From IMG/VR virus record IMGVR_UViG_3300022925_000007: a stretch of 20,000 nt of DNA; one strand, written 5' to 3'. Position 1 is the stretch's first letter. Each line of letters starts with the position of its first letter. The DNA comes from an uncultured virus (IMG/VR IMGVR_UViG_3300022925_000007) (taxonomy: Duplodnaviria > Heunggongvirae > Uroviricota > Caudoviricetes). Below the pieces are notes generated by a model. That model was not told where the DNA came from. It saw only the letters and a program-made list of their open reading frames with translations, and ran no database searches. Shown here piece by piece: positions 3 through 19,674 of the stretch. The position numbers were made by a program, and so were the translations under genes.

Positions 3-1343
3 ACTGTTAAAACAACTTTTACCTTTGAAAGACCTATTGAGTTGAAGGCAGAAACAGAATATGCTATCGTGTTGCTTTCTCAATCTACTGGTTACACAGT
101 TTGGGTTGCTACTATGGGCAACTTCCTAGTCGGTTCGACAACCTTGAAGGTGGTATCGCAACCAACGTTGGGATCACTGTTCAAGTCACAGAACGGCACG
201 ACTTGGGAACCTTCTCAGAATCAAGATTTAACATTCGACTTGAGCATCGCTGACTTTACAAGGAGCGGTTTGAGCGGCGAAGCAAAATTTGCAATGAATG
301 ATTTTCCTAACTATCGTTTACGGAATAATCCATTCTATGTTGATTCAGCGTCAAACTCAGTAAGAGTTTACCATCCATTCCATGGAATGTTGGTGGGAGA
401 TAAGGTACTCATTAATCACTTCGATAGTGCGTCTGCTGACTCTGATCACCTTCGCGGTATAACCGATGGTCAGATTCAAGGTCTACAAACTATCACCGCA
501 AAGGATGTGACTGGATACACATTTACCTCATCGGGCACTTCAACCAGTGGCGGATTCGGTGGTGGAAACTTCTGGCAAGCAACTCAGCAAGCACAGATTG
601 ATGTTCTCTATACTGGATTCCAAGTTCACAGACCAGACGCTTCTGACGCAACTGCTAAGATTAAACTGACAAGCGGTCAGTCTGAAGCTGGTAGTGAACT
701 GGCATATGTCTACGATACGTCTTATACAGATATTGTGATTAACAGCAATAATTATTTCTCTGCTCGTAAGATGTTGGTGAATAGTCAAAATAAGACAGCG
801 CAAAGCATGAGTGAATCCGATGACTTGCGTATCATTATGACAACCACTAACAAGTACGTGTCACCAGTGGTTGACGCATTAAATACTTCACTACACTGTA
901 TCACGAATATCATCGACGATCAAGACTCTGCTGGTCTTGGAGGCAATCAACCCTTGACCTATACTGCAGAAAATACTGCAGACGGCGGTTCTTCTATAGC
1001 AAAATATGTTACTAAGACCGTAACGCTAGAGAATGAAGCAGTTGGTCTAAAGGTTCTTATCGGTGCTAACAAACCTTCGGTCGCTTCGTTTGACGTCTAC
1101 TACAAGACTGCAGGCGTAGATGAGACTATCGCTGATAATAGCTGGGTACTTGCCGAGGTCGATAACCTTTTGCCTTCTGACGACGATGGTGTTACCTTCA
1201 GGGAGTATCGTTATACTATTGGCGGAACTCAAGGAACGTTGGATCCTTTCGTGCAGTTTAAAATCAAGATTGTGATGCGCACACAGAACAATCTACTTGT
1301 TCCTCGCTTCCGAGATCTACGCGCGATTGCCCTGACAGTATGA
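3..1343 (+). CDS. C-terminal part (5'-truncated) of a large T4-like virion structural protein, DUF4815/VrlC-like
   Basis: Frame is open from base 3 (TVKTTFTFERPIELKAETEYAIVLLS), so the ORF-track start at 42 is internal. Motifs GSLFKSQNGTTWEPSQNQDLTF, AKYVTKTVTLENEA and terminal PRFRDLRAIAL match this family in T4-like marine phages. Confidence 0.75.
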   Translation, partial: TVKTTFTFERPIELKAETEYAIVLLSQSTGYTVWVATMGNFLVGSTTLKVVSQPTLGSLFKSQNGTTWEPSQNQDLTFDLSIADFTRSGLSGEAKFAMNDFPNYRLRNNPFYVDSASNSVRVYHPFHGMLVGDKVLINHFDSASADSDHLRGITDGQIQGLQTITAKDVTGYTFTSSGTSTSGGFGGGNFWQATQQAQIDVLYTGFQVHRPDASDATAKIKLTSGQSEAGSELAYVYDTSYTDIVINSNNYFSARKMLVNSQNKTAQSMSESDDLRIIMTTTNKYVSPVVDALNTSLHCITNIIDDQDSAGLGGNQPLTYTAENTADGGSSIAKYVTKTVTLENEAVGLKVLIGANKPSVASFDVYYKTAGVDETIADNSWVLAEVDNLLPSDDDGVTFREYRYTIGGTQGTLDPFVQFKIKIVMRTQNNLLVPRFRDLRAIALTV

Positions 1344-1344
1344 T

Positions 1345-1572
1345 ATGAAGAATTATATACCTGTCAGCGGTAACTCCAACTTGGTCAAAGACCCTAGGAG
1401 TAATGCGGTGATCAATATAAATAATGATGAGATACGGGCAGCAAAAGAACGTAAAAAAAGAATGCAGGAAAAGGCGAAAGAAGAGCAATTACTCAAGCAA
1501 GACGTTCAAGATTTAAAAGAAGATATGTCTGAAATTAAGTCCCTGCTTCAACAGTTATTAGAGAAGAAATAA
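1345..1572 (+). CDS. Small coiled-coil hypothetical protein of the type that follows the DUF4815-like gene in T4-like phages
   Basis: 75 aa; V-x-G-x-x-N-L-x-K-D-x-x-S-N-A-V-I-N N-terminus and heptad C-terminus (LKEDMSEIKSLLQQLL); starts 1 nt after the upstream stop. Confidence 0.75.
   Translation: MKNYIPVSGNSNLVKDPRSNAVININNDEIRAAKERKKRMQEKAKEEQLLKQDVQDLKEDMSEIKSLLQQLLEKK
1416..1423 (+). promoter_or_regulatory. T4-type late promoter (TATAAATA) inside the 75-aa ORF
   Basis: Exact match to the T4 gp55 -10 consensus, about 150 nt upstream of the 1572 start. Confidence 0.5.
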
Positions 1573-1787
1573 TGGCAACGATATCGTTACAACTCGTTGA
1601 TAGTTTTGCTACGTTGAGGACGAAGTTCAATTCGCTCTCAACGAATCTTGGCGATTTAACTCTATTAACGACCGACGCAACCAGTTCAATAGTCGCCGCA
1701 ATCAATGAAATAGATAGTGCTTCAACTGTAGCATCAGGCAGAGTTCTAGAGGTTTATGATCGTAACGGAACTTTGTTGAATCCTTAA
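1572..1787 (+). CDS. Small fibre-associated structural protein (short coiled-coil/anchor)
   Basis: 71 aa; TAATG stop/start overlap; DSFATLRTKFN and GDLTLLTTDATSSIVAAINEI resemble phage fibre N-terminal and stalk motifs. Confidence 0.6.
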   Translation: MATISLQLVDSFATLRTKFNSLSTNLGDLTLLTTDATSSIVAAINEIDSASTVASGRVLEVYDRNGTLLNP

Positions 1788-1801: not shown

Positions 1802-3499
1802 GTGGCAATCACTGATATACCATTAAGAATAAAAAACTCAAATGGTGACCTTCAGCAGTTCTCGACCTCTGAAGAAAATTTCCTCGCCTATCAAATGGGT
1901 CTCAACTTAGCATCACGCGGTGTAAATGCTAGTAGTGCTCTCTCGACTTCTTCTGATAGTGCTGCGCTCGTTGGTAGTTTTACTGATACGCAATACAATC
2001 AAATCGGTGTTTCGGGCGATAACGGAACCACTGTTGAGGCGCAAGAAACCATTTCTTACCTGTACCAAAAGACAGGCGCTGCGCCAATCGACGGCACGGA
2101 TTATGAAACGCCGATAGGTTATAAAACATCTGACACGTCAATCAGAGAAATGGTTGATAGCGACTTGTTCGGTTTAGTTGATAGAACGCTTTCGGTTTGG
2201 GCCACGAATGATTATCCTGGTATATACAAATTAGACTCATCGGGGTTTTCTGATGGCGATTATGAAATTCATATTGATACGGTTTTCGAAGACAATAGAA
2301 GCAATGTAAACAATTTACAGACTGACTACCATATCTGGAAACGTACTTCTATGACGCCGCCAAGCGCCGCGAGACCTATGTTTGTCGTGCGTACTGGAGG
2401 GGGCGAATTTGCAGGCGGTGTTCGTGAAATGACGGATACGCAAATTCAATATACCTTTGGTCAAAGAGCAAGGAACCGTATCATTTCGTCAGGTATCGGC
2501 ACCTACCAGTTGAGAGATAACACACAAGGCGCACCAACTGATCCAGGCACTTGGGTGGCAAAGGGTGTGGCAACTGATACCAGACACGTGATTGTTGAGA
2601 CACAGTTTTCTGACACGTATGAATCGACGAGCGAAATACCATATAGTGCTCAGGTAGATAGGACCTACACTGGAAATTATGAATCTCAATACAGTAAACA
2701 ATATGGCGCTCAGTACGCCAGACAATACACCAGACAATATGCTGGATTGGAGGGTTATACCACACTGTTACAGTATTCAAAGGGATACACAGCGCAGTAC
2801 ACCAGACAATTCGCTGGCGGATTGAACACTTATTATACAGGATTGGTCTCTTTCGAAGGAACTGCTCAGTATACAAGACAGTATAGCGGATTCATCATAG
2901 GACCATCTTTTGACGGAACTTACGTTGGCGCATTTACCGGAACATTTGGTGGCGGAACGTACACCGGTGTGTACTCAAGACAACGTGCGTATGTCGCTCC
3001 CGCTGCCACCGGTGGCGGCGGCGAATTTTTCATTGGAATATATGAATCTTATGCTAGTTTCACGGGTCAGTTTACCGGAGCTGCTTATCAGGGTCAGTAT
3101 AGCTCCTCTTTTATCGGCACTTATGTCCTAGACGTAGAAAATCAATTCACCGGCACATACCAAAGATCTGCAATATATTCCTCTCAGGAGCAATACCTTG
3201 GAGTACTCGAAATACAGTATTCCAATAACTACGCGAGTAGATATGTTAGGCAGTATACTGGAAGCACAACTTATACCGGAACAAGGCAATACGCAGGTCA
3301 ATACTCTTCGCAGTATACGCAGCAGTATACCGCTCAATTTGCTGCTCAATTTGCAGGGTCATACACCGGTCAGTTTGGCGAAATTTATGTTAAGCAATAT
3401 GTTGGCGATCAATATATCGCTCAGTATGGTGGTCAAGTAGTCGACGACACTCAATCTACAGTAATCAAAACATACACTTTGTATGTAAGAACCGCATAA
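1802..3499 (+). CDS. Tyr/Gln/Thr/Gly-rich putative virion protein: three-module base plus ~270-aa mirror-symmetric aromatic-repeat insertion
   Basis: 565 aa; GTG start with GGAG at 1792-1795; (Y/F)-x-x-Q tetrapeptide repeats at aa 269-542. Confidence 0.8.
   Translation: MAITDIPLRIKNSNGDLQQFSTSEENFLAYQMGLNLASRGVNASSALSTSSDSAALVGSFTDTQYNQIGVSGDNGTTVEAQETISYLYQKTGAAPIDGTDYETPIGYKTSDTSIREMVDSDLFGLVDRTLSVWATNDYPGIYKLDSSGFSDGDYEIHIDTVFEDNRSNVNNLQTDYHIWKRTSMTPPSAARPMFVVRTGGGEFAGGVREMTDTQIQYTFGQRARNRIISSGIGTYQLRDNTQGAPTDPGTWVAKGVATDTRHVIVETQFSDTYESTSEIPYSAQVDRTYTGNYESQYSKQYGAQYARQYTRQYAGLEGYTTLLQYSKGYTAQYTRQFAGGLNTYYTGLVSFEGTAQYTRQYSGFIIGPSFDGTYVGAFTGTFGGGTYTGVYSRQRAYVAPAATGGGGEFFIGIYESYASFTGQFTGAAYQGQYSSSFIGTYVLDVENQFTGTYQRSAIYSSQEQYLGVLEIQYSNNYASRYVRQYTGSTTYTGTRQYAGQYSSQYTQQYTAQFAAQFAGSYTGQFGEIYVKQYVGDQYIAQYGGQVVDDTQSTVIKTYTLYVRTA
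2606..3427 (+). repeat. Degenerate (Y/F)-x-x-Q tetrapeptide repeat region, symmetric about GGGG (3011-3022)
   Basis: Examples: YESQYSKQYGAQYARQYTRQY and YAGQYSSQYTQQYTAQFAAQF. Aromatic positions pair with index sums of 810-811. Confidence 0.9.
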
Positions 3500-3511: not shown

Positions 3512-3976
3512 ATGAATAAAAAAACTTGGCAGAGTAATGCTTATTGGTTAGACGATAAAGCGAAAGATTCTATTCGTGCGATTCTGACCTTTGAAGATGA
3601 CCGTGGTCGAAAAGTCAAGCAAGAATTAACAATCAACAAAACCAACCCTACGACGAAAGAGGCAAACCCTGATTTTGTCGAACTGGTTGAAACGGTTGGT
3701 GATGACACTATCACTCAAAATACTGAAAAAAGAAAAGAACAAAAGCAAAAAGAAGCAGAGACGAGGGATAAGCGTCGAAAGGCAGAGAAGCAGCGCAAAG
3801 AGTTAGCAGAGTTGTTTAATGCTAAGATTGAAATTATGGAAGTCGAGGAGATTAAAAACTCAGACAACCGTGAATTAAAATCTAAGATTCGCCGCGCCAA
3901 GAGTCGTCTTGAAATGGAAATGTATGCGATACTGTTGATGATGAAAGAAACACAAAACAATGCAAACAGTGAATGA
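3512..3976 (+). CDS. Highly charged hypothetical protein, possible assembly chaperone
   Basis: 154 aa; AGGA SD upstream; K/E/R-rich helical C-terminal half, unlike the S/T/G-rich fibre proteins. Confidence 0.7.
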   Translation: MNKKTWQSNAYWLDDKAKDSIRAILTFEDDRGRKVKQELTINKTNPTTKEANPDFVELVETVGDDTITQNTEKRKEQKQKEAETRDKRRKAEKQRKELAELFNAKIEIMEVEEIKNSDNRELKSKIRRAKSRLEMEMYAILLMMKETQNNANSE

Positions 3977-4700
3977 AAGTTATAACGGTTATCTTGTAGT
4001 TGCTTCTAGAAAATATTCTTACTATAAACTTGCTATAAATTGCCTAGAGTCAATTAAGGATTACTATCCGGAAGCCAATCTTTGCCTCGTCACTGAAGAA
4101 AAATTCTGCGACGGCAGGGAAAGAATTGCTGATCATGTAATCCATACTCAAGAAAGTCATTATCGCTCTAAACTTTGGGGCATGTCTCAAACTCCTTTTG
4201 ATGTCACCATGTATGTAGACGCAGACATGGAATGCGCTCATGAAGATATAAGCAAGGTCTTTGATCTTCTTGGCGACAACGATATGATGTTTAAAGGTAT
4301 ACCAGAAAAGATTTGGCCGTTGGTCAAAGACGTAGTGTTTCCTGGCGGTATGTTTAAATACTGCGGCGCAGTGTGCCTTTATAGGTCTTCTCCACTCGTT
4401 AACGATTTCATGAAAGATTGGTATGAGTATTATAAAGGTCAATATGGCGGAACATGGTGGCCGACTAAAGAAGACGGCGTCACATTTGACACGGATCTCT
4501 ATCCTTATCATCTAAGGCAGTGGGATCAATTCACACTTTGGTGGTTAACTGAAAAGGAAGAGAAGTATAAAGACCTCAAGACTGAACTCTTTGATGATGA
4601 TACCGAAAGATTAAATGCTTGGGACACATTAGAGCGACTGGGGTTAGAACCCGAGGATCCGATTCTACTACACCGTTCATTGACTGCGATTAAATCATGA
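3960..4700 (+). CDS. GT-A fold glycosyltransferase (GT8-like nucleotide-diphospho-sugar transferase)
   Basis: 246 aa; N-terminal strand-helix (GYLVVAS...LAINCLESIK); K...TPFDVTMYVDADM with DxD at aa 87-89; CGAVCLY; WDQ; C-terminal ILLH. Confidence 0.8.
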   Translation: MQTVNESYNGYLVVASRKYSYYKLAINCLESIKDYYPEANLCLVTEEKFCDGRERIADHVIHTQESHYRSKLWGMSQTPFDVTMYVDADMECAHEDISKVFDLLGDNDMMFKGIPEKIWPLVKDVVFPGGMFKYCGAVCLYRSSPLVNDFMKDWYEYYKGQYGGTWWPTKEDGVTFDTDLYPYHLRQWDQFTLWWLTEKEEKYKDLKTELFDDDTERLNAWDTLERLGLEPEDPILLHRSLTAIKS

Positions 4701-4713
4701 AAAGGATTCATAG

Positions 4714-5403
4714 ATGAAAGATATACCGATACGAAATGAAGAGTTGATTGCTTTGCTAAATGAAGCGTGTGCGATTGCTAATCTTGATATGATAAAAAAC
4801 CTTGCTCTGAGTAAACAAGAAAAAAGAAAAAAGTTTTTAAATCAAGAGTTTCATGTTGGAGAAGAATACAGAACTCGTATCGTTGATATGGGTCAGCATC
4901 ATCATGGGTATCCTGAACATTTGGATGCGTTTAATCTAAACCTTGGCGGTGGCGTACCTGAGGCAGAAGTAGAATCGCAGATAAATCAAGTGGGGGTTGA
5001 TCTTTATCAGAGGGTCTTAGATGTAGATAAAAAAATACAAACCTTCATAGGAACTCGAAACAACGCGCTCTTTACTGTTTATCCTCCTGGTGGATATATC
5101 TCCTGGCATAATAATGCGAACGCTCCTGGATATAATGTCATTTTTACTTGGTCAGAAAAAGGAGAGGGTTACTGGCAGCATATAGACCCGATTACCAAGG
5201 AAGTCGTCACGATACCTGACGTTATTGGTTGGCAGTGTAAGTCCGGTTACTACGGGCATTATGGTCAGAAAAACGAACTTATGTATCACTGCGCCGCGAC
5301 TAACTGCTGGAGAATGACTATCGCTTTCGTATTCAATAAAAGTGAAATGGGTGAAGAAATGTCCAAAATGGCGCTTGAGGACATTTCAAATACTTATAAA
5401 TAA
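4714..5403 (+). CDS. 2OG-Fe(II) oxygenase-like (DSBH/jelly-roll) protein
   Basis: 229 aa; YPPGGYISWH132-N-N ... YH192CAATNCWR200MTIAF follows the Y-x-x-G-x-x-x-x-x-H-x-D ... H ... R pattern, with Asn in place of Asp. Confidence 0.65.
   Translation: MKDIPIRNEELIALLNEACAIANLDMIKNLALSKQEKRKKFLNQEFHVGEEYRTRIVDMGQHHHGYPEHLDAFNLNLGGGVPEAEVESQINQVGVDLYQRVLDVDKKIQTFIGTRNNALFTVYPPGGYISWHNNANAPGYNVIFTWSEKGEGYWQHIDPITKEVVTIPDVIGWQCKSGYYGHYGQKNELMYHCAATNCWRMTIAFVFNKSEMGEEMSKMALEDISNTYK
5395..5402 (+). promoter_or_regulatory. T4-type late promoter (TATAAATA) overlapping the oxygenase stop codon
   Basis: Exact consensus match. Confidence 0.55.
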
Positions 5404-5460: not shown

Positions 5461-5817
5461 ATGGCGCACTACGAAGATTTACAGTTTGATCAAGGTACGG
5501 ACGTAGCAGTCGAGATTCATTTAGTCGAGACCGATGGTTCGAAAAAAAACTTGACGGGTTATAGTGCTGCTGCTAAAATGAAGCGGAACTATAACAGCGA
5601 CAGCGCTGATACTGTAGATTTCAGTGCTCTCGTTTCTTCGCCTGCTACTGATGGTATCGTCACGCTTGCGTTGACTAATACGCAAACTGACTCGTTAGAT
5701 GCTAGGCGAAGATATTTTTATGATGTAGAGATCTCTTACAACGACAGTGACGGTAATGCGATTATAGAAAGAGTCTTAGAGGGACGAATAGACATCAACC
5801 CATCAGTGACGAGGTAA
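5461..5817 (+). CDS. Small beta-sandwich virion protein (fibre attachment adaptor, BppU-N-like)
   Basis: 118 aa; DQGTD, NLTGYSAAAKMKR, GIVTLALTNTQT, RYFYDVEI and RVLEGRIDINPSVTR match a family common beside fibre genes in T4-like cyanophage-type genomes. Confidence 0.75.
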   Translation: MAHYEDLQFDQGTDVAVEIHLVETDGSKKNLTGYSAAAKMKRNYNSDSADTVDFSALVSSPATDGIVTLALTNTQTDSLDARRRYFYDVEISYNDSDGNAIIERVLEGRIDINPSVTR

Positions 5818-8797: not shown

Positions 8798-13225
<4,428 letters not shown>

Positions 13226-15432: not shown

Positions 15433-18400
15433 ATGGCAATAGCATCTGTTACAAAAACGGTAGCGATAGATAGTGCTAGCACGTATCTAGGTCATCCAAT
15501 GAATAATGGAATCAGTTCCTCTGGGTACTGGTACACATATATTCCAGCAAGTGCAGATAATAAAACGCTTGGTGCTTCTATAGTTCCTTATGTTTACGAT
15601 TCTGGATTAGACCTAGTTAATACGCTAGACTCAGTCGGAATAGATGCTACTTTTGCTCTGGTAAAAGAAACGTGGAACGGATCCACGAAATACTATCACG
15701 GCGGCGTAATAGAGCATATTGGCGCGGGTCAAAATGATATTACTGGCGACAACGAAGACGATGCTTATTTCTTTGCACATTTAGGCAATTATGATAGCGT
15801 TGGTCAAGTTAGTGACGATGGATTCTGGTGGGATCGCCTATACGAAGAAGAGGGAACTGGCGAATGGGACTATTATCAGTACCACGTTCATTTTCCTGCC
15901 TTGTACCCCAATTATAATGATGCGCGATTGGTTGTTAATGGTAATGGATATGTTGATGTTGATGATAAGGCATTTGGTTATAGCATTCAGATACGTGTAA
16001 AGTCTGGCGGAAATTTCTATTCTAATGTTTTAGCAAGGGTTCACACGCCGAGTATCGGCGGTGCGCATAACTCGCATAATGACGTTATCCTTGGTGGAAC
16101 TGCCACAAAAAATTATCTTCACGCGGGCATGATCACTGGCACTAACGATCGCTTCTATACGTTTATCCTAGACTCAGCAGGAACTAATGACTGGCGTGTT
16201 TCTACAAGAACATATACAGACGCTGCTGGTTCATTCGGCATTTCTACTGATCTAGGAACCTATGATTTAGCAGATCCAGTATTCAATTTTCAGACAGATT
16301 ACACGGGCGATCAAGGCGAGTATCCTTTCCGTGCAAGTGCTGGTGACATTTACGACAATCACATTTATATTCCTGTCATTTACAACGGCGCGGCGTCAAC
16401 CTATGATTTGAAAATATGGAAACTACAAGAAGGCACGACCCTTCCTACTGGTAGTTTGTCGGTCCAAGATTTCTTGACTGGATTAGATATTAAACCAGAT
16501 TGCCAAATTCGTACAGTCGGCGATAAGGTTTATCTGCTCGTTGCTAACGACGATGCGGAAGTAAAATTGTATTCGACTACTGGTAACGGTTCCTTCACAG
16601 ACGAAGGAACCATCGTTGCAAATAATTCGGGTTCTACGAAAAATCTTCGTATACATGGATTCAGGTATAACCCGAATAACACCAAATACTATGCCTTGAT
16701 CTCTGGCGATTACGAAGCAGGCGGAACATATACAGGTCAGGGACTGTATTCGTTTAGTTTGACAGGCGTATTTGAGGGTTATGAACACCTTGACTTTGCT
16801 ACTGATAGTTCTGGTGGATACTTGGTAAGACCAGCGCAACAAGCAGGCAATTTAGTCTACGATCATATTGACGGAATAATTAAAAGGTCAACCAACACTG
16901 AACCGGAAGGTATTGCGGTAAATACTAGTATCTTAACTTACGGTGAAGGTTCGCCCGTATTCTACGAGAAAAAAGAAATAAACACGCTCGGTAACGAATA
17001 CCTATTTAACTCTGCCTTCTTAAGGGACGGTAGAAAGATCTTCATTGGATTGCGGGAAACTGTAAACCCTGATGTTGAAGCAAACCTCTACGATATGTTG
17101 GTCACGGTGCTTGATAATGATAACAAACCTATCAGTATAGTTTATGGTGGTGATGGTGTAGATTGGCCGATTGATATTTTCCAAGACTCAGACGACCGAG
17201 TTTGGATTGCTGGTTATACTAAGAGTGAGTTTGTTGGAAAGCGAGATATTTGGGTTCATGGTTGGACAAGAAATCTTTCCGCTGGCGCAGATACGTTAGA
17301 ATTTCGCGATCATGCCGTTGATGCTAACGGTAATATCTATGCCGTTGGTAACTACGTGACCGATAATTATTCTATTGTCGCAAAATATGATTACAATTAT
17401 AATTTGCTTTGGCAGAAGCGTATAAATGGCGGACTGGATTCTGAAGAAAGTTTTGCCATTGCTCTCGATGACGATAACAATATTTACATCGTCGGCAAGA
17501 CTGTTAATTCTGGGCAGGGTGGTTTTGATGCTCAGTTGATTAAACTCGATAGCAACGGTTCCTTTACATACCAAAGGACGTATGGTACGGCAGGTCTGAA
17601 TGAGACTGCGAATAGTATTGCCGTCATAAAGAATGCTTCTGACACAAGACTTGTAATACCAGTCACACCAGATGCATTGGATTATAGCACAGTTTTGATT
17701 ACTGACCTTGACGGTGCTGTTACTGAGCAAGTTCGCTTCGACAGTTGCCGTATAAGCAAGGTAAGGAATCACGATACTACCACGGACGGCAAGTTCTTGT
17801 TCGCTGGCACGGACGGTTCGACTTCAGGTAAATTTGGATTGTGCGATATTAACGACGCCAATATTATGAAGTGGAATCAAAAGTTCTCAGCGAATGGTGC
17901 AATTAGTGACATCGTCGTTTGGACTGGTGACAGCGCTGGCGTGAGCCAGGACACAAAGTATATCGTAGTTGGTAATGATAGCGATACTGGGTTAGTCATG
18001 CAACTGTCAGTCGACTCGACCTACAGCACTATCACGAAGAACTGGTCGAAGAGTATGACCAAGAGCGCGTTTAGAAGCGTAGTGGTTTCTCCTTATAGTA
18101 TGAATATGGTCATGGATCCAGACGAGATGCATCATGCAGGTAGATATATTTACGCATTAGGTTATACCGATTCGGTAACCACTTCTCCTTACATGAATAG
18201 AACGTCAGTATTGGCACAGTTTGATTCTGTAGGAACTCAGAAGTGGCAGAATAATTTTGGTCATATGGGTGATGATAATCTATACTCTATTACTCGCGAT
18301 GTCCTGAATCGCAATTTTATCACTGTCGGAACTTCGACCAGTCACAGTAATGGTCGTGATGCTATTCTGTTCCGTGGTGAAAATAATGGTTTCGGAACTG

Positions 18401-19674
18401 GATCGTACTTTACAACGGGAAGCACTAGTGCCGCATATTATTATGAAAAGGGTGCATTGACATCTTCTGTTAATGGCACTTCATTGACCGACATAAGTGC
18501 ACCGATTGATATTGCTGGTGCTCTGGTCACTGATTCTGATAATACTGTGACGACCGCCGACACGTCAATAACATCAAAGAATTATGATGGTGCATATGGA
18601 CCGAATGGCGTTTTCCAAGGGTTCATCGCCGAGTTTAAGCTCGATAAATTCAAAGAGTTTTTGAATACTGATACTTACAAAAATAATGTTGCGAACGGCA
18701 TTGTTGCTCACAGAACTTCTGACCCGTTCGAGTTTTATCAGGTAGCAACTGTTGGCGACGGCACGGCTGATGATGGTAACATATTTTTCTACGATGGTAT
18801 TCAGCACTCTAACGGTAAATTGTATTTGGCAACTCAAACTTCCGGAAGTTTGGGTAGAAACAACACTGGTGGGTCAGGTGTTTACGATTATTCGTTGACT
18901 GCATTTAATCCTACAACAAATAAATTCACCTTCTTCCAGAACGGTGATTCTAATGACCAAGAAATTTACGCGCTCACTGAATTATCTAATGGTAACATAG
19001 CATTCACAGGAAGGACTACAGGATTCCTGAGCGGCGATTCAAATTTCGGTGGTTATGACGTCTTCCTTGGCATTTTCGACCCTACAGCGAATCATGCGCT
19101 TCATGGAGTAGGACCACACAGTGGCGTCGACTATTATCAAACTGGGTCAGGATTGAATGATCGGGGACTTGCAGTAATCGATATTGACGATAAAGATTCT
19201 GATACGTTAATGATAATAGGCACGACATACGGTGCCTTTCCAGGAACAACAAATATCGGTTCGGAAGATGTAGTTGCCTTGAAGTTCAACTACGTCAACG
19301 ATACTTGGGATTCGGCATACCAGTTTGGCAGTACCACGCAAGAACTTATAGATCAAAATAGTCATCCGGCAGCAAAACTTGCTGATGGTAGAATTGCTGT
19401 TGTTCTTCACACTGCCGGAATCTTTGCTGACGACGGTACTTCGACAGGCGGTTTAGATATAGGATTGGCATTACTTGATCCAGCAAACGGCAATTTAAGC
19501 AAGTATACTCTTTCCACCGAGGCACCTGATTTTTCATCAGCAGTTACTTCTTCCGGCAGTTTATTATCGATCGTTGGTTTCAGCGAAGCGACTTGGGAGT
19601 TTGAGCATCATGGGGTATATTCTTTCTTTGACGCTTCACTTGGATTGACCGGCAAGAACGCTGCTGGAAATTAA
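15433..19674 (+). CDS. Large multi-beta-propeller protein with SBBP-like repeats, candidate adhesin or receptor-binding protein
   Basis: 1413 aa; blade motifs AVDANGNIYAVG, IALDDDNNIYIVGKT, GGFDAQLIKLDSNG, LSNGNIAFTGRTTG, GGYDVFLGIFD and GSEDVVALKF. Confidence 0.75.
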   Translation: MAIASVTKTVAIDSASTYLGHPMNNGISSSGYWYTYIPASADNKTLGASIVPYVYDSGLDLVNTLDSVGIDATFALVKETWNGSTKYYHGGVIEHIGAGQNDITGDNEDDAYFFAHLGNYDSVGQVSDDGFWWDRLYEEEGTGEWDYYQYHVHFPALYPNYNDARLVVNGNGYVDVDDKAFGYSIQIRVKSGGNFYSNVLARVHTPSIGGAHNSHNDVILGGTATKNYLHAGMITGTNDRFYTFILDSAGTNDWRVSTRTYTDAAGSFGISTDLGTYDLADPVFNFQTDYTGDQGEYPFRASAGDIYDNHIYIPVIYNGAASTYDLKIWKLQEGTTLPTGSLSVQDFLTGLDIKPDCQIRTVGDKVYLLVANDDAEVKLYSTTGNGSFTDEGTIVANNSGSTKNLRIHGFRYNPNNTKYYALISGDYEAGGTYTGQGLYSFSLTGVFEGYEHLDFATDSSGGYLVRPAQQAGNLVYDHIDGIIKRSTNTEPEGIAVNTSILTYGEGSPVFYEKKEINTLGNEYLFNSAFLRDGRKIFIGLRETVNPDVEANLYDMLVTVLDNDNKPISIVYGGDGVDWPIDIFQDSDDRVWIAGYTKSEFVGKRDIWVHGWTRNLSAGADTLEFRDHAVDANGNIYAVGNYVTDNYSIVAKYDYNYNLLWQKRINGGLDSEESFAIALDDDNNIYIVGKTVNSGQGGFDAQLIKLDSNGSFTYQRTYGTAGLNETANSIAVIKNASDTRLVIPVTPDALDYSTVLITDLDGAVTEQVRFDSCRISKVRNHDTTTDGKFLFAGTDGSTSGKFGLCDINDANIMKWNQKFSANGAISDIVVWTGDSAGVSQDTKYIVVGNDSDTGLVMQLSVDSTYSTITKNWSKSMTKSAFRSVVVSPYSMNMVMDPDEMHHAGRYIYALGYTDSVTTSPYMNRTSVLAQFDSVGTQKWQNNFGHMGDDNLYSITRDVLNRNFITVGTSTSHSNGRDAILFRGENNGFGTGSYFTTGSTSAAYYYEKGALTSSVNGTSLTDISAPIDIAGALVTDSDNTVTTADTSITSKNYDGAYGPNGVFQGFIAEFKLDKFKEFLNTDTYKNNVANGIVAHRTSDPFEFYQVATVGDGTADDGNIFFYDGIQHSNGKLYLATQTSGSLGRNNTGGSGVYDYSLTAFNPTTNKFTFFQNGDSNDQEIYALTELSNGNIAFTGRTTGFLSGDSNFGGYDVFLGIFDPTANHALHGVGPHSGVDYYQTGSGLNDRGLAVIDIDDKDSDTLMIIGTTYGAFPGTTNIGSEDVVALKFNYVNDTWDSAYQFGSTTQELIDQNSHPAAKLADGRIAVVLHTAGIFADDGTSTGGLDIGLALLDPANGNLSKYTLSTEAPDFSSAVTSSGSLLSIVGFSEATWEFEHHGVYSFFDASLGLTGKNAAGN

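Follow-up and report, generated by a model that had tools for sequence, protein, structure and literature searches.

Within the 20,000-nucleotide (nt) stretch of uncultured virus DNA analysed here, hereafter the window (IMG/VR record IMGVR_UViG_3300022925_000007), a fibre-type gene was found on the forward strand at positions 1802..3499. According to the list of open reading frames (ORFs) and their translations, the gene begins with a GTG start codon and encodes a 565-amino-acid (aa) protein, P0001; its close homologue P0003 has its start, a Met, at the equivalent position. P0001 could be divided into five parts, all encoded on the forward strand. A conserved N-terminal domain (1802..2590, aa 1-263), delimited by structure prediction and family search, is a probable attachment module. 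It is followed by the ascending or N arm (2591..3010, aa 264-403), which is built of Y/F-x-G/small-Q/N repeats with irregular spacings, by a putative tip of sequence GGGG (3011..3022, aa 404-407), which marks a centre of mirror symmetry, and by the descending or C arm (3023..3448, aa 408-549), in which the aromatic spacings of the N arm are mirrored. The last part (3449..3499) ends in the stop codon and encodes the C-terminal strand, which bears the family motif KTYTLYVRTA and is predicted to return to the N-terminal domain. R393 and R395 precede the turn, and the hydrophobic stretch EFFIGIY stands right after it. The repeat region is of low complexity (Y 43, G 38, T 34 and Q 34 among 289 residues), and the only His residues of the protein are 157, 177 and 262, none of them inside the arms. 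The first-pass annotation, made from the letters alone, had described aa 269-542 (nt 2606-3427) as a mirror-symmetric aromatic ladder folding into one giant beta-hairpin.

The ladder could be confirmed by direct counting. All 18 residue pairs that had been listed explicitly around GGGG were Tyr or Phe on both sides; the index sum was 811 in the seven pairs closest to the tip and 810 in the other 11. For the full count, every aromatic residue between aa 262 and 550 was used with no exclusions (n = 59), and residue i was scored as matched when an aromatic residue was present at 810-i or 811-i. Among the N-arm aromatics 26 of 28 had an aromatic partner, the same figure as claimed earlier, with 344 and 364 unmatched; among those of the C arm 26 of 31 were matched, leaving 409, 410, 417, 525 and 533. 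The off-ladder residues and the two exceptions, V285 and S277, were also as first named, the latter two being the partners of 525 and 533. A null distribution was generated by permuting the order of the C-arm spacings 20,000 times and taking the best of 25 registers per shuffle; on average 17.9 matches were obtained, with 25 as the highest value, and 26 was never reached. When the irregular inner part (aa 305-505) was considered alone, 19 of 21 aromatics were matched, a result equalled by 1 of 20,000 shuffles, compared to 14 of 21 for the best purely translational, tandem-type match over the same residues. The irregular spacings themselves are therefore mirrored, as had been proposed, in a manner unlike tandem repetition.

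A rigid-register mirror count was oversensitive to single-residue shifts, and a gapped alignment of the aromatic pattern was used instead. For P0001 this yielded a score of 60 in the mirror direction and 38 in the forward direction. Against a shuffle null of 26.8 ± 4.4 these correspond to z values of 7.6 and 2.6, respectively, and the mirror score was reached in 0 of 200 shuffles. Near the tip, the proposed shift of two residues could also be reproduced: at a sum of 809 or 813, four of the seven N-arm aromatics of the tip part lie opposite Gly. Since an aromatic residue also faces Gly after such a two-residue slide, the register, aromatic-aromatic or aromatic-Gly, is not fixable from the sequence. 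The DNA between positions 2500 and 3499 contained no matching inverted repeat; short direct repeats and a single 14-nt palindrome, located at the GGGG codons, were all that could be detected, so that the symmetry is restricted to the protein. As no single duplication event yields a reversed pattern, the mirror must be maintained by selection on the protein.

Homologues were compared for insertions and deletions (indels) in the two arms. The set consisted of 13 independent homologue pairs with at least 60% identity between the anchors, namely the N-terminal domain and the C-terminal strand, each protein being used once; indels of at least 3 aa located more than 40 residues from the midpoint were counted, and depth was measured as distance from the base. 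The sample is small and no P value was assigned. It replaced a first test at 45% identity or more (Pearson r 0.54, Spearman 0.77), which had taken in unreliable alignments of low-complexity arms. In P0057/59, changes of -6 and -24 at depth 56-59 of the N arm were accompanied by -8 and -20 at depth 63-70 of the C arm. P0055/62 showed -24 at depth 50 and -24 at depth 57, P0027/40 showed +3 at depth 56 and +4 at depth 64, P0058/61 showed +4 at depths 28 and 26, and P0009/21 showed -4 at depths 69 and 70, the N arm being given first in each case. Between P0005 and P0007 four matched pairs could be observed (2/2, 4/4, 8/8 and 4/4). Large arm indels thus appear to be predominantly paired in size and depth; of the compensating indels that a hairpin would demand, most were present and some were missing, as detailed below. 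At or close to the tip, indels lacked a counterpart, which is compatible with a hairpin; P0011/12, for example, showed -12 at a distance of 16 residues from the midpoint. Similarly, P0003 (478 aa) lacks a single 87-aa block, residues 366-452, which spans the tip, and its offset between mirror sum and anchor sum is unchanged at -7. In global alignment P0003 has 436 identities with P0001, and it was listed at 75% in the homologue search.

The midpoint could be predicted from the anchors alone as (N anchor + C anchor - 6)/2, which gives 405.5 for P0001. The motifs found at the midpoint were TGGGGE in P0001, EGGGE in P0002, GPGEPP in P0004, LAPGEP in P0007, FDGPTY in P0016 and FGPK in P0056. The fraction of Gly plus Pro was 0.258 in the seven-residue window at the centre compared to 0.149 in the arms, which are themselves Gly-rich, and the centre exceeded the arms in 48 of 66 proteins.

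Structure prediction was conducted using AlphaFold2 (AF2) on the P0001 monomer, with a 29-sequence alignment, and in a second run on the 417-aa homologue P0016. The predicted local distance difference test (pLDDT) score of P0001 was mostly 85-96 for aa 1-265 and for the last 20 or so residues, with 88-96 at the C-terminal end. Long strands were predicted at 251-274 and 537-563, whose ends sum to 814 and 811, in agreement with the 810/811 of the ladder; in P0016 the corresponding strands were 250-280 and 383-415. The N-terminal domain and the last strand are thus predicted with confidence to fold together, and the chain must therefore return. In this model the start and the end of the module come together at the proximal end, as in the doubled-back tip of T4 gp37. 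The same two elements are kept in proteins from 292 aa (P0137) to 3347 aa (from phage C48C1). A prediction of a three-copy complex of aa 246-565 scored 0.00 without controls and counts neither way.

The fold of the N-terminal domain was compared with known structures. In a wide VIA-align search, two models of the domain retrieved the same top five chains of the MVB12-associated beta-prism (MABP) type, namely 8b6v_A, 2qp2_A, 3tow_A, 6sb1_A and 6u23_A, with Z scores of 4.3-6.8 (5.2-6.8 for the four best), root-mean-square deviations of 3.7-6.1 and 113-125 aligned residues; the next row stood at Z 2.7-2.9. These matches lie below the guide value of Z 8 and possibly reflect only a common arrangement. 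Foldseek searches of the PDB and of the viral library BFVD returned nothing at E ≤ 0.001.

Sequence searches placed P0001 in an unnamed family. P0001 had no Pfam match (E ≤ 0.01) and no PHROG family, a PDB sequence search returned nothing better than a chance-level kinase match (E 0.53), and the ESM Atlas contained no model of it, the nearest clusters being unnamed viral proteins at 0.87-0.89. A megablast search of the whole window against phage records gave no match. A total of 114 further homologues were present in the protein collection, and a search with the N-terminal domain retrieved 337 cluster representatives at E ≤ 0.001, 243 of them at E ≤ 1e-10, with listed lengths of 184-2503 aa. 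Members share about 260 N-terminal residues that end in W-V-A-K-G-x-A-x-D-T, and complete members end in E-T-Y-T-L-Y-V-R. These conserved anchors enclose a hypervariable region of Y/F-x-G-x repeats, whose length between the anchors ranges from 37 residues in P0137 to about 3060 in the C48C1 protein. Of 132 further representatives, 92 carried the C-terminal motif within their final 14 residues; truncated proteins and variants such as TYTLYCR are among the remaining 40. Five homologues (P0023, P0025, P0135, P0138 and P0251) were truncated, with short unrelated tails such as ...LLYTSD... and ...SYTHLTLP..., and were not counted as complete; presumably these tails are translated sequencing-adapter sequence at contig ends. 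In 15 diverse homologues, 564 repeat units were counted, each composed of an aromatic residue, T/V/A/S, G (or R/S/A) and N/Q/D/T. The aromatic spacings were mostly even (4: 564, 6: 92 and 8: 83, compared to 5: 49 and 7: 18), as would be expected for one face of a beta strand.

The sole homologue among phage records was the 3347-aa protein of phage C48C1 (OQ984149; L001 8001-17023 with L003 1-2055), which is annotated as 'hypothetical protein'. It contains about 1034 repeat residues before a small non-repeat insert at approximately aa 1296-1357. After the insert about 1057 repeat residues follow in total, broken by five globular segments of 126-245 aa. If the insert is taken as the tip, a choice made after the layout had been seen, the arms are nearly equal and the adhesin-like domains stand in the returning arm.

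The extent of the mirror across the family was evaluated using the gapped alignment. In the first set of 112 homologues, z exceeded 3 in the mirror direction for 54 proteins and in the forward direction for 34. Where the arms have a regular period of four, mirror and translation are indistinguishable, and the mirror signal therefore belongs to members whose spacings are irregular and does not extend to the family as a whole. Symmetry beyond plain periodicity holds in P0001 and in several subfamilies. It could be seen in P0005-7 and P0008. In the P0018 group, GNPxIxY heptads are ordered 1-x-5, tip, 5-x-1, according to a reading by eye and not a scripted count. In the P0056/57/59 group, eight-residue Pro/Cys units (D-P-C-x-F, T-P-A-Q-P-T-x-F) replace Y-x-G-x, and the aromatics are still mirrored. 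Indels paired as 6/6 and 24/22 were also noticed in this group, where Pro-rich strands and possible disulfides would give a rather different ribbon.

The fibre gene follows a VrlC-like gene and two small ORFs on the same strand. The C-terminal part of a VrlC-like baseplate protein (42..1343; phrog_358, E 1e-84), with 31% identity to the VrlC-annotated proteins of Pelagibacter phages Mosig and HTVC008M, marks the start of a host-recognition cluster. It is followed by a 75-aa virion structural protein (1345..1572; phrog_473), which is also conserved at this position, ahead of the fibre gene, in related contigs, and by a 71-aa ORF (1572..1787) that resembles the N-terminal segment of marine phage tail fibres (phrog_25848, tail fiber protein, E 3.5e-5), including that of the 626-aa HTVC008M fibre. 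A match to the 71-aa ORF was present upstream of the fibre homologue in six contigs (L007, L008, L009, L010, L012 and L016), and its product may be a separate baseplate adaptor for the fibre. The order VrlC, small ORFs, homologue was found in 11 of 12 related viral contigs and in C48C1, with 0.4-4.5 kb between the VrlC match and the fibre homologue; in the remaining contig, L008, the upstream sequence is too short. The positional counterpart in HTVC008M is a different, one-way fibre of 626 aa. In excerpts of PMC7029224, the region after VrlC in pelagimyophages and cyanomyophages is described as a hypervariable host-recognition cluster, the genes directly 3' of VrlC as tail fibres in most genomes, and pelagimyophage tail fibre proteins as hard to identify. 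The location of the gene, judged by these sequence matches, is that of the tail fibre and host-recognition class of T4-like marine myoviruses.

Among known systems, the closest likeness was found in the receptor-binding tip of T4 gp37, which is reported to consist of a collar, a needle and a head, the chain doubling back into a six-stranded needle (Bartual et al. 2010, as summarised in parts of PMC12609058 and PMC9659904). The statement in the first-pass annotation that no described phage appendage is built this way was therefore too strong, since the gp37 chain also doubles back. Both proteins belong to the setting of a T4-like phage tail fibre with a fibre-assembly gene nearby; in both, the chain would run out to a distal part and back to a proximal one, with antiparallel strands in one thin needle, and in gp37 it is the distal end that binds the receptor. 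However, P0001 has no sequence similarity to gp37 (best BLASTP E 0.65) and has neither a tail collar nor any other Pfam family. There are seven HxH motifs in gp37 785-1026, whereas the P0001 arms have no His and thus no HxH iron sites, and a Tyr/Phe-Gly ladder stands in their place. The arms of P0001 are about 145 residues long (12 to several hundred in relatives), compared to about 50-70 in gp37 as estimated from the HxH positions, and the doubled-back part is nearly the whole of P0001 but only the end of the 1026-aa gp37. P0001 is outside the gp37 family and is a different solution of the same kind, sharing topology and biological setting. When gp37 was tried as a positive control for the mirror statistic it proved unsuitable, as its three ascending and four descending HxH motifs form no simple mirror pairs. 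The T4 protein (L004 6543-9623) ends in F-N-Y-I-V-R-L-A and the P0001 family in Y-T-L-Y-V-R-T-A, in both cases as the last strand returning to the proximal domain; this terminal likeness is too short to test, and BLASTP finds nothing.

A second comparison concerns the animal protein MPEG1 (perforin-2), for which part of PMC7593815 describes an MABP domain with a hyper-extended beta-hairpin. The models of the P0001 N-terminal domain match MABP-type chains first, although weakly (Z below 8), and the P0001 tip likewise has basic residues, R393 and R395, before the turn and the EFFIGIY stretch after it. In contrast to P0001, the MPEG1 hairpin measures tens of residues and is part of a pore-forming protein of animals rather than of a virion. 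The trimeric fibre shafts of phages and adenoviruses, such as the triple beta-spiral and the triple beta-helix, are one-way repeats with a distal C-terminus. They resemble P0001 in being thin, repeat-built and beta-rich, with a length set by the number of repeats; however, the P0001 termini are conserved and predicted to co-fold, and its irregularities are mirrored and not translational. Two further candidates, the 'Tentaclins' (PMC10743442) and the hairpins of Alteromonas fibre chaperones (PMC10579305), were found to be unrelated.

We consider it about 70% probable that P0001 is an up-and-back antiparallel beta fibre shaft, similar to the gp37 needle, devoid of HxH-iron sites and two or more times longer. 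The single antiparallel hairpin that had been proposed is supported by the co-folded base, the conserved termini, the paired indels and the turn at the midpoint, while the arms have no confident model. Several observations weigh against this reading. In the AF2 runs the base strands paired in antiparallel fashion, but the arms were at pLDDT 25-30 throughout, over aa 269-541 of P0001 and aa 269-394 of P0016, so that these models speak neither for nor against a zipping of the arms, and the low-confidence model of P0001 contained a local hairpin within the N arm (strands 322-336 and 342-356). Mirroring of Gly with Gly was weak (6 pairs compared to 2.4 in the null, a value reached by 96 of 5000 shuffles), and charge complementarity across the P0001 arms was absent, with no opposite-charge and two same-charge cross pairs. 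Unpaired indels were also present: P0055/62 had an additional -7 in its C arm, P0009/21 had a +4 at N depth 43 whose sole counterpart is a +4 at C depth 79, and P0002 had changes of +1, +2 and +1 in its N arm with none in its C arm. In the class of about 800 aa, P0046/65 (-7, C arm) and P0014/37 (-4, N arm) were unpaired, and P0048/49 combined +5 at N depth 215 with +4 at C depth 158. Among 60 further complete representatives, z exceeded 3 for the mirror in 36 and for the forward comparison in 37, the mirror being the stronger in 29 and the forward match in 26, and the giant C48C1 protein scored z 2.2 in the mirror direction compared to 2.4 in the forward direction. The mirror sum lay within 11 of the anchor sum in 29 of the 32 proteins with a mirror z of at least 3.5; such central alignments are partly expected, as the overlap is largest at the centre, and many of the 32 proteins are close relatives.

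The equal forward and mirror similarity across the family, together with the C48C1 scores, would fit another type of repeat fold (for example a parallel beta-solenoid, a beta-roll or a multi-pass sheet) in which the ends are near one another by chance and the two halves are unpaired. Very long members such as the C48C1 protein are indeed hard to see as one hairpin, and short Tyr/Gly/Asn/Gln repeats occur in solenoid and cross-beta folds too. A solenoid, however, predicts translational irregularities, whereas the inner ladder of P0001 matched better in the mirror direction (19 of 21 compared to 14 of 21); it would tolerate the insertion of whole rungs at a single site, whereas rung-sized indels (24/24, 30/28) came in mirrored pairs; and the confidently predicted base strands form one long antiparallel pair. 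Such a fold is therefore unlikely. Slightly less probable still is that the repeats form a flexible or disordered loop or tether, rich in Tyr, Gly, Thr and Gln, within one globular domain, the mirror being structurally meaningless. The low pLDDT over the entire region in two members would suit such a tether, as would the low-complexity composition and the hypervariability of both sequence and length, but it gives no reason for irregular spacings that are mirrored beyond any of 20,000 shuffles and leaves the indels matched in size and depth, the Gly/Pro turns at the midpoint and the even aromatic spacings unexplained. That a period-4 repeat produces the symmetry trivially, any periodic pattern being its own mirror, is very improbable for P0001: spacing 4 does dominate (564 of about 980 gaps) and many homologues with regular repeats score alike in both directions, but the irregular spacings of P0001 (6, 5, 9/8, 6, 6, 8, 6, 6) are themselves mirrored, shuffles of the same spacings reached the match in 0 of 20,000 cases for the whole arm and in 1 of 20,000 for its irregular part, and the paired indels and central turn motif are independent of periodicity. 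This trivial origin was rejected for P0001 on the basis of the shuffles, and it is still an adequate description for members with perfectly regular arms.

For the up-and-back shaft, the following working can be proposed. The source would be a marine T4-like myovirus related to pelagimyophages, and the gene product a tail-fibre-type appendage. The N-terminal domain (aa 1-263) and the last 20 or so residues (TYTLYVR) would fold into one base module, with the periphery of the baseplate or an adaptor as its probable docking site. From this base the chain would run out for about 145 residues, turn at GGGG (404-407) and return antiparallel in register, and beta structure presumably extends along the whole arm. 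Each four-residue unit would consist of an aromatic residue, T/V/A/S, G or another small or basic residue, and Q/N/D. With such units, Tyr/Phe would alternate with Gly on one side of the strand and polar residues would occupy the opposite side, and the aromatics of the two arms would therefore face each other, or Gly after the two-residue slide. A two-strand ribbon of this length is unlikely to exist alone, and its Tyr/Gly face would most likely be buried by oligomerisation; by analogy with T4 gp37, a trimer forming a six-stranded needle may be suggested. The tip would be the likely receptor-contacting end, being a hydrophobic, aromatic-rich loop here and carrying extra non-repeat sequence in homologues of about 800 aa. 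Shaft length would change in evolution either through indels paired between the arms or through the loss of segments that include the tip. The shaft would measure at most about 48 nm (146 residues at 3.3 Å per residue) and less if coiled; the length of about 45 nm given in the first-pass annotation is likewise to be taken as an upper estimate, for a flat strand.

More tentatively, and at somewhat less than even odds, the family may represent an undescribed class of fibre shaft, a metal-free 'tyrosine-zipper' beta ribbon. In this class a conserved beta-prism base would clamp both ends of the chain and the shaft would be the chain running out and back. Paired indels would let its length vary freely, with arms of about 12 to several hundred residues and possibly, as in C48C1, of about 1000 with globular adhesin domains inserted on the way back. 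Such shafts would be widespread among marine T4-like phages whose hosts are of the SAR11 type, of the OM43 type or cyanobacterial. No description of the P0001 family or of a mirror-symmetric fibre sequence could be found in the open-access full texts that were searched. What is new is an up-and-back needle that would be metal-free, aromatic-laddered and scalable in length; it is not categorically new, and we infer the structure of its arms. Tail fibres set the host range of phages, and the host-recognition clusters of abundant marine T4-like phages are largely unannotated; the P0001 family would give such a cluster a recognisable and structurally interpretable member. If the proposed structure is true, the doubled-back needle principle of T4 gp37 needs no metal sites and scales to very long shafts, and mirrored irregularities with paired indels would allow fibres of this type to be recognised in metagenomes from sequence alone, where current structure predictors fail. 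A two-strand beta ribbon that is long and sets its own register would be of interest to protein designers as well.

The remainder of the cluster is encoded downstream of the fibre gene, likewise on the forward strand. Three genes without assigned function (3512..5403) encode proteins of 154, 246 and 229 aa with 41%, 46% and 39% identity, respectively, to their counterparts downstream of the C48C1 homologue; they are likewise present downstream of the homologue in five viral contigs (L008-L012), and none of the three had a Pfam or PDB sequence match. A V-D-A-D-M-E stretch in the 246-aa protein is reminiscent of the DxD glycosyltransferases. Glycosyltransferases are reported in the host-recognition cluster of pelagimyophages in an excerpt of PMC7029224. 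The next gene (5461..5817) encodes a 118-aa protein resembling tail fibre assembly proteins (phrog_1084; phrog_3304, 'L-shaped tail fiber protein assembly', E 2.9e-13). Further downstream, a second and conventional fibre of 1475 aa (8798..13225) contains ten collagen triple-helix stretches (PF01391, E 2.4e-125) and has many tail-fibre PHROG matches. The cluster also encodes an 890-aa protein and a large unannotated protein of 1413 aa (15433..19674), which has no PHROG family and shows weak matches to beta-propeller repeats (SBBP, E 1.2e-5). The cassette directly downstream of the fibre gene was found in L008-L012 and L003, where the downstream DNA is long enough, and the 118-aa assembly-like gene is kept in related loci.

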